This document shows positions 33,993 to 37,775 of a DNA stretch of 64,000 nucleotides, in pieces. Origin of the DNA: Atribacterota bacterium. GTDB taxonomy: Bacteria > Atribacterota > Phoenicimicrobiia > Phoenicimicrobiales > Stramentimicrobiaceae. Positions within the stretch are counted from its first letter, which is position 1. Each line of letters begins with the position of its first letter. The notes beneath the pieces are model-generated. The model was not told the DNA's origin. It did not search any database and was given only the letters and a program-made list of their open reading frames with translations. The DNA lies in assembly GCA_040767965.1 (NCBI GenBank), contig JAXGNR010000008.1, positions 1 through 64,000 of the forward strand. The letters run 5' to 3'. The position numbers were made by a program, and so were the translations under genes.

Positions 33993-34021
33993 TTGACATA
34001 AAAAGTGGAAAAACTTATAAT
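33993..34021 (+). promoter_or_regulatory. Consensus sigma70 promoter of the T-box leader
   Basis: TTGACA 33993-33998, 17 bp, TATAAT 34016-34021. Confidence 0.85.
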
Positions 34022-34029
34022 TAAAAATG

Positions 34030-34298
34030 AAAGAATGCTTTTAAGGAAAACTAAATCTTTTTATCTTATACAGAGAACCGCAGTTGGTGTAAAGGCGGTT
34101 AAGAAAAATGATTAAATTCCACCTTAAATGTAGTTCCAGTCTACAAAATATTTTTGTTATTTGTTTAACTTTATAAAACATAATAAAGATTATTATTCAG
34201 AAAGAGCAGTTCACTCTGTTGAATTAGGGTGGTACCACGTGATTAAACTCTCGTCCCTAGGATTTTACAGTCTATAGACGGGGGTTTTTTGTTTTTTT
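34030..34298 (+). ncRNA. T-box riboswitch, serine specifier (UCC)
   Basis: Stem I TTTAAGG/CCTTAAA, AG box CAGAGA, GGTGTAA loop, specifier TCC at 34118-34120 followed by A; T-box AATTAGGGTGGTACCACG 34222-34239; antiterminator partner CGTCCCT; terminator with U-tract to 34298. Confidence 0.9.
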
Positions 34299-34314
34299 CA
34301 GAGGGATATTTGTC

Positions 34315-34743
34315 ATGGAAAAATATATAGTTATTGAACATACTGCAGATATAGGGTTAAAAGTATTAGGTAATACTAAAAAGGAATTATTCATAAATGC
34401 TGCCAGAGGAATGTTTTTTCTTATTACCGGATTGTCTCTGGATAAGAAACCTTTTAAAAAACAATATTTACCAGTTGAATGCAATGCAGCAGGACTAGAG
34501 GATTTACTGGTTGCCTGGTTAAATGAACTGCTTTTTATCCATAACACCGATTTTCTTTTTTTAAATGAATTTAAGATAGAAAGCCTGACAGGTAATTTTC
34601 TTAAATCTCAAGTAGGAGGATTTAGATTAAAGGAGTTTCCTTGTAAAATAAACAATGAAATCAAAGCAGTAACTTATCATAATTTAAATATTTCTAAAAA
34701 TAAAAAGAAACAATGGGAAACTTCAGTAATATTTGATATTTAA
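34315..34743 (+). CDS. Archease (RtcB activator)
   Basis: EHTADIG, LLVAWLNELLF, EIKAVTYH, C-terminal IFDI. Confidence 0.93.
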   Translation: MEKYIVIEHTADIGLKVLGNTKKELFINAARGMFFLITGLSLDKKPFKKQYLPVECNAAGLEDLLVAWLNELLFIHNTDFLFLNEFKIESLTGNFLKSQVGGFRLKEFPCKINNEIKAVTYHNLNISKNKKKQWETSVIFDI

Positions 34744-34808
34744 AATATTCTCAATATTTAATTTATAGTTCATTATTACAAGTGGTATTTTGGAAAGGGT
34801 TTATTAGA

Positions 34809-36266
34809 ATGGGAACAAACTGGGAAGAAATATTAATACAAAAAAATGAAGTTATATGGGATATACCAAAAGAAATTTTTTCAGGGATGATGGTAGATGG
34901 ACGTATCTATGCTTCTATAGGATTGATAAACCAGATAGTCCAAGATCAATCATTACAACAGGTAGTTAATGTTGCTTTTTTACCAGGTATAGTCGGTTAT
35001 TCCTTGGCAATGCCAGATATTCATTGGGGATATGGTTTCCCTATTGGCGGAGTTGCTGCTACCCGAGTTGAAGATGGGGTTATTTCACCTGGAGGTGTTG
35101 GTTTTGATATTAATTGCGGGGTAAGATTAATCAGGTCCAATTTATTTATTAATGATCTTAAAAGTAAATTAGAAACCCTATTGGAATTGCTCTATAAAAA
35201 AATTCCTTCTGGTGTAGGAGCAGAAGGCAATCTTAAATTAACCCCTTCTGAATTAAAACAGGTTTTGGCAGAAGGAGCACAGTGGGTTATTAAAAAAGGA
35301 TATGGGGAAAAAGACGATTTTTTGTTTAGTGAAGAAAAAGGGAAAATGATTCATGCCAATCCAGAGATAATTAGCAAAAAAGCTTTACAAAGAAGTGCTA
35401 CTCAACTGGGAACATTGGGTTCAGGAAATCATTTTTTAGAAATACAGATTGTTGATAAAATTTATCAACCGAAAATAGCACAATCTTTTGGTCTGGAAAA
35501 AGATATGGTTGTTATTGCCATTCATACAGGATCCAGAGGATTTGGTCACCAGGTCTGTACTGATTATTTATCAAAAATGCAGAAGGCTGTACAAAAATAT
35601 CATCTTAGTTTACCAGATAAACAGCTAGCTTGTGCACCGATAAATTCACCGGAAGGTCTGGAATATTATCAGGCAATGTGTTGTGCAGCTAATTTTGCCT
35701 GGGCTAATCGCCAATATATAACTTATTGGATTAGAGAAATTTTTGAAAATGTTTTTCGTATGACAGCTGACCAAATAGGACTGAATCTGGTTTATGATGT
35801 TGCCCATAACATTGCTAAAAAGGAAATGCATCGATTTGCTGGAAAAGAAATGCAATTATGTGTACATAGAAAAGGAGCAACCAGGGCTTTTCCGCCAGAT
35901 CATCCTGATTTGCCTGCAAAATATCAGCAAGCTGGACAGCCTGTACTTGTTCCAGGGGATATGGGAAGATATTCATACTGTTTAGCCGGCAAAAAAGAGG
36001 CGATGGAAAATACTTTTGGGTCAGCTTGTCATGGAGCAGGCAGGATATTAAGCAGGGGAGCTGCCAAAAAAGAAACTGAAGGCAGAAATATCAGTGCAGA
36101 ATTAAAAGAAAAAAATATTTTAGTTAAAGCAAGAAATAGAAATACTCTGCGAGAAGAGTTTCCCGCTGCCTATAAAGATGTTTCAGAGGTAGTAAAAGTA
36201 ATAGAAGTTAGCAATATATGTGAAAAAGTAGCCAGAATGCGCCCCTTAGGAGTTATCAAGGGTTAA
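34809..36266 (+). CDS. rtcB: RNA-splicing/repair ligase RtcB (archaeal/eukaryote-like long form)
   Basis: MPDIHWGYGFPIG, GFDINCG, GSGNHF, HTGSRG, AHN, HRKGATRAF, CHGAGR, C-terminal KG; all metal/GMP residues intact. Confidence 0.96.
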   Translation: MGTNWEEILIQKNEVIWDIPKEIFSGMMVDGRIYASIGLINQIVQDQSLQQVVNVAFLPGIVGYSLAMPDIHWGYGFPIGGVAATRVEDGVISPGGVGFDINCGVRLIRSNLFINDLKSKLETLLELLYKKIPSGVGAEGNLKLTPSELKQVLAEGAQWVIKKGYGEKDDFLFSEEKGKMIHANPEIISKKALQRSATQLGTLGSGNHFLEIQIVDKIYQPKIAQSFGLEKDMVVIAIHTGSRGFGHQVCTDYLSKMQKAVQKYHLSLPDKQLACAPINSPEGLEYYQAMCCAANFAWANRQYITYWIREIFENVFRMTADQIGLNLVYDVAHNIAKKEMHRFAGKEMQLCVHRKGATRAFPPDHPDLPAKYQQAGQPVLVPGDMGRYSYCLAGKKEAMENTFGSACHGAGRILSRGAAKKETEGRNISAELKEKNILVKARNRNTLREEFPAAYKDVSEVVKVIEVSNICEKVARMRPLGVIKG

Positions 36267-36326
36267 AGCAATTAAACAAACAAAATTATAACAAACAGCT
36301 GTTGTTTAGAGAGGAAGGTCAGCTAT

Positions 36327-37601
36327 ATGTTAGATTTAAAATTTATTCGTTCAGAGCCTGAATTAGTAAAAGAATCTTTAAAAAAAAGAGGTGAAAAACA
36401 CCACTATATTGAAGATATTTTAGAGCTGGACGAGAAAAGAAGAAAAATACTGTATGATGTAAATAATTTAAAGCAAGAACGTAATTATGTATCTGAAGAG
36501 ATTGGGCAGTTAAAAAAAGAAAAGAAAAATGCTCAGGCACAAATTTTAGCCATGAGAGAAGTTTCCAAAAAAATAAAAGAAATGGATTTTGAGTTAAAAG
36601 GGTTAGAAGACAAAATACAAGAAACATTGATGATAATTCCCAATATGGTAGACGACAGTATTCCTATAGGCTTGGATGATAAGAGCAATATTGAAATCAG
36701 AAAATGGGGAATACCCAGAGAGTTTGATTTTCAGCCACAAGCCCATTGGGATTTAGGTGAAAAGTTAGGAATGCTTGACTTTGAAAGAGGAGCTAAAGTC
36801 TCTGCTGCTCGTTTTACTGTTTTAAAAAATTATGGAGCAAGATTAGAGCGGGCATTAATAAATTTTATGCTTGATATTCATACTAAAGAACACCACTACC
36901 AGGAAATATTTCCACCTTTTTTAGTTAATTTTAACACTATGCGAGGAACAGGACAGTTGCCGAAATTTGAAAATGATTTATTTAAAGTTAGTGATGATTT
37001 GTATTTAATTCCTACTGCAGAAGTTCCATTAACAAATCTTCACCAAGACGAAATTCTGCCCGAAGAAGAGTTGCCAATTTATTATACTGCATATACTGCT
37101 TGTTTTCGTAAGGAAGCAGGTTCTTACGGAAAAGACGTTAGGGGACTAATCAGGCAGCATCAATTCAATAAAGTAGAAATGGTTAAATTATGTAAGCCGG
37201 AAGAGTCTTTCCGAGAACTAGAAAAACTTACTCAAGAAGCTGAAACAGTATTACAGAGATTGGAGCTTCCATACCGTGTTGTTGTTTTGTCTTCAGGAGA
37301 TATTGGTTTTTCAGCAGCAAAAACATATGATTTAGAGGTTTGGCTTCCAGGACAGGAGAAATACAGAGAAATATCTTCCTGCAGCAACTGCATTGATTTC
37401 CAAGCACGTAGAGCTAATATACGCTATCGGTCTGCAGATTCAGGGAAGGTGAACTTTGTACATACTTTAAACGGATCAGGTGTTGCGATTGGGAGGACAA
37501 TGGTAGCAATTTTAGAGAATTTTCAGGAAAAAGATGGTTCAATTTTTATTCCACAAGCCTTACGATCTTACATAGATGGATTGAAAAAAATTCCCAGTTA
37601 G
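36327..37601 (+). CDS. serS: Serine--tRNA ligase
   Basis: [49 protein letters not shown]. Confidence 0.97.
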
Positions 37602-37689
37602 GGTAAAATTTGGTTGCTAATATAATACATGTCTGTTAATATTATTTATTGTTAAACTAACAACCAGATCAACAGATTTTATTTTTTGC

Positions 37690-37775
37690 GGAGGGATGTC
37701 CGAATGGCAAGGGGCCGGTCTTGAAAACCGGTGTAGGCGTAAGCTGTCTGGGTTCGAATCCCAGTCCCTCCGCCA
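37690..37775 (+). tRNA. tRNA-Ser(TGA)
   Basis: Acceptor GGAGGGA/TCCCTCC, G discriminator, encoded CCA; anticodon arm CCGGT-CTTGAAA-ACCGG; long variable arm; T-arm CTGGG-TTCGAAT-CCCAG. Confidence 0.95.

Follow-up and report, generated by a model that had tools for sequence, protein, structure and literature searches.

Organization of the locus and of its leader

The 64,000-nt stretch of DNA analyzed here (hereafter, the window) comprises positions 1 to 64,000 of the forward strand of contig JAXGNR010000008.1, from the Atribacterota metagenome-assembled genome GCA_040767965.1. Near its middle, a T-box leader that reads as specific for serine tRNA is followed by the genes for archease, the RNA ligase RtcB, and seryl-tRNA synthetase (SerRS, encoded by serS), and then by a tRNA-Ser(UGA) gene. 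The elements of the locus are as follows.

33993..34021 (+), sigma-70-type promoter TTGACA-17-TATAAT; 12/12 consensus matches; 3' boundary 14 nt upstream of the T-box match
34035..34261 (+), T-box leader, Stem I to antiterminator; Rfam RF00230, all 219 model positions, 77.0 bits, E 4.3e-16
34247..34299 (+), intrinsic terminator, from the minimum-free-energy fold and sequence; hairpin at ~34247-34284, then UUUUUUGUUUUUUU
34315..34743 (+), archease, 142 aa; PF01951, 1.4e-33, residues 4-142
34809..36266 (+), long-form (archaeal/eukaryal) RNA ligase RtcB, 485 aa; PF01139, 1.9e-174
36327..37601 (+), seryl-tRNA synthetase, 424 aa; PF02403 and PF00587
37581..37609 (+), promoter-like TTGAAA-17-TAAAAT across the serS stop codon; 10/12 matches
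37690..37775 (+), tRNA-Ser(UGA), G73, CCA encoded; ARAGORN, and Rfam tRNA at 57.1 bits

A first-pass annotation, made by a model without database searches, had claimed a consensus promoter, a complete T-box leader with the serine codon UCC in the specifier position, a terminator, and then intact archease and long-form rtcB genes ahead of serS and tRNA-Ser(TGA), with gaps of 65 and 60 nt that lack an obvious terminator. This description of the locus stands. The promoter is an exact consensus, and it is the only perfect (12/12) one between 33700 and 38100, an interval with no general excess of promoter-like sites (13, vs. 18.4 expected from shuffled sequences). The leader aligns over the full length of the RF00230 model, at a score below the Rfam gathering score (see below), and has the expected Stem I landmarks, namely, the AG bulge (ACAGAGA) and the distal loop (GGUGUAA). 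Alignment to the model gives AAAUUCCA as the specifier loop, with UCC at 34118-34120 and the purine A at 34121. The 14-nt T-box sequence is AGGGUGGUACCACG at 34226-34239, and within it UGGU occupies 34230-34233.

The terminator hairpin is followed by the U-tract U6GU7. In the minimum-free-energy fold, the 3' strand of the antiterminator overlaps the 5' strand of the terminator hairpin, so that the two folds are mutually exclusive. An equivalent hairpin and U-tract were detected by script in 37 of 41 orthologous leaders (the script missed the terminator in the window owing to a UUUU inside the hairpin loop). Both strands of the terminator change together between families of the phylum, being CUCUCGUC/GACGAGAG in families f1 and f2 and CUCUCGCC/GGCGAGAG in f3 and f4. 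Judged by its sequence, the leader is a serine T-box of the transcription-terminating kind, in which uncharged tRNA is predicted to bring about read-through.

The tRNA that the leader reads

The assignment of UCC as the serine specifier is borne out both by the model alignment and by conservation. UCC followed by a purine was found by script in 39 of the 41 orthologous leaders; locus L074 shows CAAUUCCA by eye, and the leader of L080 is truncated. UCC is constant, whereas the position before it can be A, C, G, or U, or be missing. The T-box sequence contains UGGC in 35 of the 41 leaders and UGGU in the other six, including that of the window. It is important to note that UGGC pairs only with G73. 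In this genome, the discriminator base is G73, followed by CCA, in all four tRNA-Ser but A73 in tRNA-Pro. Serine rather than proline is therefore the specified amino acid, because UGGC matches the discriminator base of tRNA-Ser and because the base before UCC varies. Two other readings of the specifier loop were tried and ruled out: proline (CCR, from a +1 reading of the loop), by the variable preceding base and the fit of UGGC to G73, and phenylalanine (UUC), as the base before UCC is not constant. UCC is also predicted to be the serine specifier of some Clostridium leaders, according to passages of PMC8002221.

The genome to which the window belongs (2.33 Mb in 30 contigs, 98% complete) has 40 tRNA genes, including tRNA-Ser with anticodons GCU, CGA, GGA, and UGA as well as tRNA-Sec. 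The cognate of UCC, tRNA-Ser(GGA), is encoded at C5:183532-183625. As tRNA-Sec is present (G000:C9:20785-20880), SerRS in this genome serves selenocysteine synthesis too.

Archease, RtcB, and SerRS

The archease gene, whose ATG is preceded by the ribosome-binding site (RBS) AGAGGGA, has a full-length domain, and the archease of Pyrococcus horikoshii (4n2p) aligns with its product over the full length (8.9e-16). For rtcB, the longest open reading frame (ORF) begins at GTG 34782 (494 aa). However, ATG 34809 is most likely the start, given that an RBS (GGAAAGGG) is present there and that relatives and PDB homologs align from about that point. With this start, the archease-rtcB and rtcB-serS spacers are 65 and 60 nt, respectively. 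The P. horikoshii RtcB aligns end to end with the window RtcB (E 4e-169), and the two share identical DINCGVR, GSGNHFLE, HTGSRG.GHQ, DVAHN, and CHGAGR motifs. These are the catalytic, metal- and GMP-binding motifs. Cys98 of RtcB is named as a catalytic residue in PMC4150793. Based on these comparisons, both proteins look functional, and ligase activity is predicted. The serS ATG is preceded by the RBS AGAGAGGAAGG. Both serS (one match) and rtcB (one copy) are single in the genome.

RtcR (PF06956) and RtcA (PF01137) were not found in the 98%-complete assembly, in searches for which the controls responded in Escherichia coli. Likewise, the splicing endonuclease EndA (PF01974) was not found in the genome (controls responded in four archaea), and none of its 40 tRNA genes has an intron. 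Because the genome has neither tRNA introns nor a splicing endonuclease, tRNA splicing is not the role of RtcB here.

Conservation across Atribacterota

We surveyed 86 Atribacterota genomes, which fall into seven families (f1-f7); serS was found in 65 of them. The survey took the DNA upstream of serS, and is thus unbiased with respect to rtcB. In 59 genomes (f1, 15; f2, 16; f3, nine; f4, 15; f6, three; f7, one), serS is preceded by rtcB in the same orientation, and G012 provides one further case by coordinates. Six other genomes with serS are outside this count, either because serS is at a contig end or because the locus was not fetched. No other upstream neighbor of serS occurs among the judged genomes, archease precedes rtcB wherever the flank exists, and within Atribacterota rtcB was never found elsewhere in the genome. 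The spacing of the genes depends on the family: it is tightest in f4 and f6 (11-17 nt), wider in f1 (41-255 nt), and widest in f2 (100-557 nt). Because the order is conserved phylum-wide, with rtcB beside serS in 59 genomes and archease-rtcB-serS in every family judged, a misassembly or a one-off arrangement is ruled out.

A serine T-box heads the operon in 42 genomes (f1, 12; f2, 16; f3, four; f4, 10). It stands directly before archease in the 12 f1 genomes and in all 16 f2 genomes with flank, although four of the latter were recognized by motif and inspection only. In f3 and f4, two serine-biosynthesis-like genes separate the UCC T-box from archease, and it lies 1.3-2.9 kb upstream in f3 (4/4 genomes with enough flank) and 1.9-2.25 kb upstream in f4 (10/10). 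In the f4 genomes inspected, these genes are a class-V aminotransferase-like ORF and a short phosphoglycerate-dehydrogenase (PGDH)-like ORF. The latter matches TIGR01327 at 310 bits, below the cut-off of 454, and the two are a plausible serine-biosynthesis pair. The aminotransferase ortholog has no tblastn match in the genome of the window, and for the dehydrogenase only paralogs (≤40% identity) are found there. In f6, the order is a DJ-1-like gene, a PGDH-like gene, archease, rtcB, and serS.

The first-pass annotation had offered, as an alternative to a functional coupling, the neutral insertion of archease-rtcB into a serS leader. This does not fit the survey. No Atribacterota genome has a T-box directly before serS, none of the loci scanned with Rfam has one between rtcB and serS, and the UCC T-box of f3 and f4 precedes two serine-biosynthesis-like genes that are themselves ahead of archease. 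The archease-rtcB-serS unit is ancestral in Atribacterota rather than a local insertion. The simplest history, which we propose without a rooted tree, is that the ancestral unit consisted of the T-box, the aminotransferase gene, the PGDH-like gene, archease, rtcB, and serS, and that the f1/f2 layout would most simply have arisen by loss of the two biosynthetic genes.

T-box leaders in general are abundant in the phylum. Every one of the 86 genomes searched has between two and 14 matches at E ≤ 1e-6, and in 80 of them at least one match is above the Rfam cut-off. Our searches found no literature on T-boxes in Atribacterota, and the survey documents their abundance there.

Several insertions were seen in and around the operon. 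Several f2 genomes and one f7 genome have an in-frame RtcB intein of ~510 aa (PF14890; L075:2481-5474, and the split RtcB matches in L024-L029, L044, and L078-L083). The intein interrupts RtcB immediately ahead of the catalytic Cys (DIN|C...SN|CGVR), and its junction residue is that of the P. horikoshii RtcB intein. In some f2 genomes, a gene for a 23S-rRNA-intervening-sequence (IVS) protein (119 aa, PF05635, 2e-39) lies between rtcB and serS (L075:5575-5934). The same insert is present in L018, L022, L029, and L083, as well as in L074, where it contains stops and looks decayed; runs of AGTAATG/AGTAACC-like heptamers flank it. In L013 and L038, the enlarged spacers (rtcB-serS and serS-tRNA) contain short palindromic repeats, GGGGTTTCAGGGGA...CCCCTGAATATC, that resemble miniature repeat elements. 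Upstream of the operon in one f6 genome there is a weak group II intron D1-D4 match (L058:4637-4767, - strand; 32.3 bits, E 0.009).

Linkage of rtcB and serS in metagenomes

A metagenome scan with an RtcB alignment was used to sample 80 loci, at 51%-62% identity. In 57 of the 80, rtcB has archease upstream of it in the same orientation. Among the 69 loci whose downstream flank reaches 600 nt or more, nine have serS immediately after rtcB. One of these nine is Atribacterota-like and has a T-box at 107.6 bits; none of the remaining eight has a T-box. In these eight loci, SerRS is more distant, and in four of them tRNA-Lys is upstream. Most carry tRNA-Ser genes after serS, with up to three isoacceptors. 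As this second lineage has the order without the T-box, the association of the ligase with serS is broader than the T-box. In RtcB trees, the distribution of the rtcB-serS linkage needs four changes, of which well-supported branches force only two, and the AU test does not reject a tree in which all linked RtcBs form one clade (p = 0.122).

In seven of the 80 sampled RtcB genes (L129, L160, L164, L169, L178, L185, and L186), TGA stands at the codon of the catalytic metal-binding Cys of DINCGVR; the aligned Cys of the window is residue ~112 of the 494-aa ORF. Six of the seven are in one seven-row fork (support 84) that also holds L140, and L129 pairs with L130, which lacks the TGA. These genes are candidates for natural selenocysteine RtcBs. 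The sole selenocysteine RtcB that we found in a literature search is the engineered Sec98 enzyme of P. horikoshii (PMC4150793).

Proposed regulation and alternative explanations

The locus is a real, conserved, and unusual T-box regulon with an RNA ligase in its cargo. From the anatomy of the leader, we think it likely that a T-box riboswitch specific for tRNA-Ser(GGA) heads the archease-rtcB-serS operon and induces the ligase together with SerRS. Transcription would start at the consensus promoter (33993-34021) and, when tRNA-Ser is well charged, the leader terminator would form and most transcripts would stop before archease. When uncharged tRNA-Ser(GGA) builds up, it would pair with UCC via its anticodon and with UGGU via its G73-CCA end, thus stabilizing the antiterminator, and RNA polymerase would then read through archease, rtcB, and the only serS of the genome. 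The result would be co-induction of an archease-dependent RNA ligase and seryl-tRNA synthetase under a shortage of serine or of charging. As for why the two should be coupled, the explanation that we prefer is that RtcB-archease would maintain tRNA or some other RNA of the translation machinery and be co-expressed with SerRS.

A number of observations weigh against this proposal. The leader in the window does not reach the curated gathering score of RF00230 (77.0 vs. 93 bits), so that a default scan at that threshold misses it, and its Stem II region aligns poorly to the model. However, only one of the 13 full-length T-box matches in this genome is above the cut-off, and a score below it is normal for a genome this AT-rich. 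The orthologous leaders of relatives score 75-121 bits, and many are above the cut-off (e.g., L017 at 109.4, L019 at 114.5, and L084 at 120.9 bits). T-box control is also not found everywhere in the phylum. The f1-type locus L038 has only a 31-bit T-box remnant; no T-box was seen in the f1 loci L016 (1 kb of flank) and L003 (381 nt of flank); and in f6 none was found in the upstream DNA searched, which extended to 5.4 kb for two genomes and to 1.4 kb for a third. In some f2 genomes, a foreign ORF or a long spacer separates rtcB from serS, and serS may there have gained its own promoter. A weak promoter-like site precedes rtcB in the window (TTAAAA-18-TATAGT, 9/12), and several relatives have TTGATA-17-TAGAAT before rtcB. 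Such sites could give expression independent of the T-box, though they occur at chance level in this AT-rich DNA. The contigs from an RNA library (one of 270 nt, error-free, covering 34521-34790, from archease into the spacer; another of 200 nt, from within rtcB, that differs from the window at one position; both at a depth of ~3) do not reveal where transcripts begin or end, and may include carried-over DNA. Finally, nothing here ties RtcB to tRNA-Ser as a substrate.

The strongest alternative is that archease and rtcB are passengers. In this case, the T-box would serve serS (and, elsewhere, serine biosynthesis), archease-rtcB would ride in an old operon that does not break up easily while the ligase acts on unrelated RNA substrates, and co-induction would be nonadaptive. 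We regard this as quite possible, if short of probable. The serine T-box regulons known from passages of PMC8002221 consist of serA, for which control was tested experimentally in Paenibacillus polymyxa, and of serS and serC, which are cited as members. Because f6 and the second metagenome lineage keep archease-rtcB-serS without a T-box (0/8 in the latter), the link between ligase and serS does not require the T-box. The AU test reported above leaves room for the linkage to have arisen once, in which case simple inheritance could suffice, and the genome contains no tRNA introns, EndA, or RtcA to suggest tRNA-Ser as the substrate. Against this, the three-gene core has been kept down to 57% SerRS identity while both of its flanks changed, with serine genes lost or gained and the intein and the 23S-IVS-protein ORF inserted. 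In addition, the 11-17 nt gaps in f4 and f6 suggest translational coupling, and rtcB, as noted, was found nowhere else in Atribacterota genomes.

Archease, rtcB, and serS are predicted to be co-transcribed. A different arrangement would be one in which the T-box governs archease only, or archease and rtcB, and the essential serS is expressed mainly from an unrecognized internal promoter. The promoter-like sites (9-10/12) before rtcB in the window and in relatives could be taken in favor of such split control, as could the spacers of 100-557 nt between rtcB and serS in f2 and the hairpin-plus-U stretches after rtcB in some f1 relatives. However, no promoter or terminator is detectable in the window between rtcB and serS, where the spacer is only 60 nt. 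More generally, neither of the two gaps in the window contains a terminator-like site, and there are no promoter-like sites with at least 9/12 matches on the + strand between 34770 and 37580. The f1 rtcB-serS spacers compared share no -35/-10 motif, the gaps of 11-14 nt in f4 and f6 are too small for a promoter, and promoter-like matches in the region are no commoner than in shuffled sequence. On this evidence, split control seems unlikely. Public sequencing runs, which share only 0.05-0.07 of the words of the stretch, are neutral on co-transcription: their contigs fall in scattered pieces, none of which bridges leader and archease or rtcB and serS.

Another reading would make RtcB-archease, in Atribacterota and in the T-box-less second lineage, a dedicated maintenance enzyme, either for serine tRNAs (tRNA-Ser, possibly tRNA-Sec) or for RNAs that are damaged as ribosomes stall when Ser-tRNA runs short. 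The serine T-box would in that case be the first known example of a riboswitch that switches on an RNA-repair ligase, an equivalent of RtcR made of RNA only, and archease-dependent bacterial RtcB would gain a defined physiological trigger and a candidate substrate. We give this reading little credence.

The first-pass annotation had gone further, proposing that the ligase is controlled by uncharged tRNA-Ser and that the leader acts as a sensor of tRNA damage or starvation. Of this, the control by uncharged tRNA-Ser fares well, given a serine T-box with archease and rtcB as the first genes after it, and the sensing of damage does not. A T-box reads the anticodon, the elbow, and the free NCCA end of an intact uncharged tRNA, as described in passages of PMC7778990 and PMC8002221. 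As the anticodon loop must be uncut and the NCCA end free, the leader would report a shortage of serine or of charging rather than a cut tRNA. A dedicated repair circuit, in which uncharged or damaged tRNA-Ser induces the ligase, the ligase reseals cut tRNA-Ser, SerRS recharges the product, and anticodon nucleases are thereby countered, is thus improbable: the ligase pair does lie beside serS with tRNA-Ser genes next, both in Atribacterota and in the second lineage, and the RtcB is of the archease-dependent, tRNA-splicing type, but a cut tRNA should not trigger the T-box, if tRNA-Ser were lost, what is left would tend to be fully charged and so keep the switch off, neither an anticodon nuclease nor anything else that would cut tRNA-Ser was identified, and the adjacent tRNA gene (UGA) differs from the isoacceptor sensed (GGA) and seems to have a promoter of its own.

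Relation to known systems

The leader resembles those of the serine T-box regulon of Bacillota in its Stem I serine specifier, its 14-nt T-box sequence with UGGN, and its alternative antiterminator and terminator with U-tract. The targets are also alike, as serS and serine-biosynthesis genes are among those of Bacillota, serS is the third gene under the serine leader here, and serine-biosynthesis-like genes are included in f3 and f4. The differences are that the unit in the window carries an RNA ligase and its activator, which are the first genes in f1 and f2 and internal in f3 and f4, and that the host is an atribacterium. The T-box cargo is thereby extended beyond synthetases, biosynthesis, and transport.

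Archease and RtcB reportedly form a "tRNA splicing operon" in archaea and some bacteria (e.g., P. horikoshii and Thermus thermophilus). The window has the same adjacent pair, with a long-form RtcB whose active-site motifs are identical to those of P. horikoshii. It differs in that the pair is in an operon with serS under a T-box, and in that the genome has no tRNA introns or splicing endonuclease.

The enterobacterial rtcBA operon (rsr-yrlBA-rtcBA) is controlled by RtcR and sigma-54, RtcR being a protein that senses damaged RNA, and to our knowledge this is the only well-studied circuit controlling RtcB. There, as proposed here, expression of a bacterial RtcB is conditional on a tRNA-derived signal. 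However, neither RtcR nor RtcA was found in the genome of the window, the RtcB is the archease-dependent long form, and the regulator would be a cis-acting RNA that recognizes intact uncharged tRNA rather than a protein that senses damaged RNA. The eight T-box-less metagenome clusters share with the window the archease-rtcB-serS order and the tRNA-Ser genes that follow. They differ in having no T-box, up to three tRNA-Ser isoacceptor genes and, in four cases, tRNA-Lys upstream.

Our literature searches found no link between T-boxes and RtcB or archease and no description of a T-box-regulated RNA ligase, although supplementary tables (of TBDB or other surveys) might list such an operon. One Listeria preprint names both a T-box and RtcB, and its T-box passages make no connection between the two. 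If the proposed regulation is correct, an archease-dependent RtcB would be wired to a very specific signal other than that of RtcR, namely, uncharged tRNA-Ser; its gene stays beside serS throughout the phylum and also in the second lineage. Should the coupling be no more than historical, the locus would still be a clean case of a mixed-function operon preserved at phylum depth.

The tRNA-Ser(UGA) gene and flanking genes

In f1 and at several f2 loci, serS is followed by a tRNA-Ser(UGA) gene. That this gene is part of the T-box unit is not supported. The promoter-like site across the serS stop codon is conserved, as each of the 11 f1-type loci compared (10 relatives and the window) has TTGMAA-17-TARAAT in this position. 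Because of this conservation, the tRNA gene probably has its own promoter and would not be primarily under T-box control.

Divergent from the T-box promoter are two genes on the - strand, at 32801-33844 and 31588-32787, that encode a threonine aldolase-type protein and an M20 peptidase, respectively. The former is a low-specificity threonine aldolase or GntG-family PLP aldolase, that is, a glycine- and serine-related enzyme. After the tRNA gene, 37998-44563 (+) comprises a nitrogen-assimilation block of genes for an ammonium transporter, a P-II protein, and the large subunit of glutamate synthase. Further downstream, two other RNA elements score above their Rfam cut-offs: a PyrR binding-site leader at 45702-45789 (+; 61.5 bits) and a c-di-GMP-I riboswitch at 59768-59860 (+; 51.5 bits).

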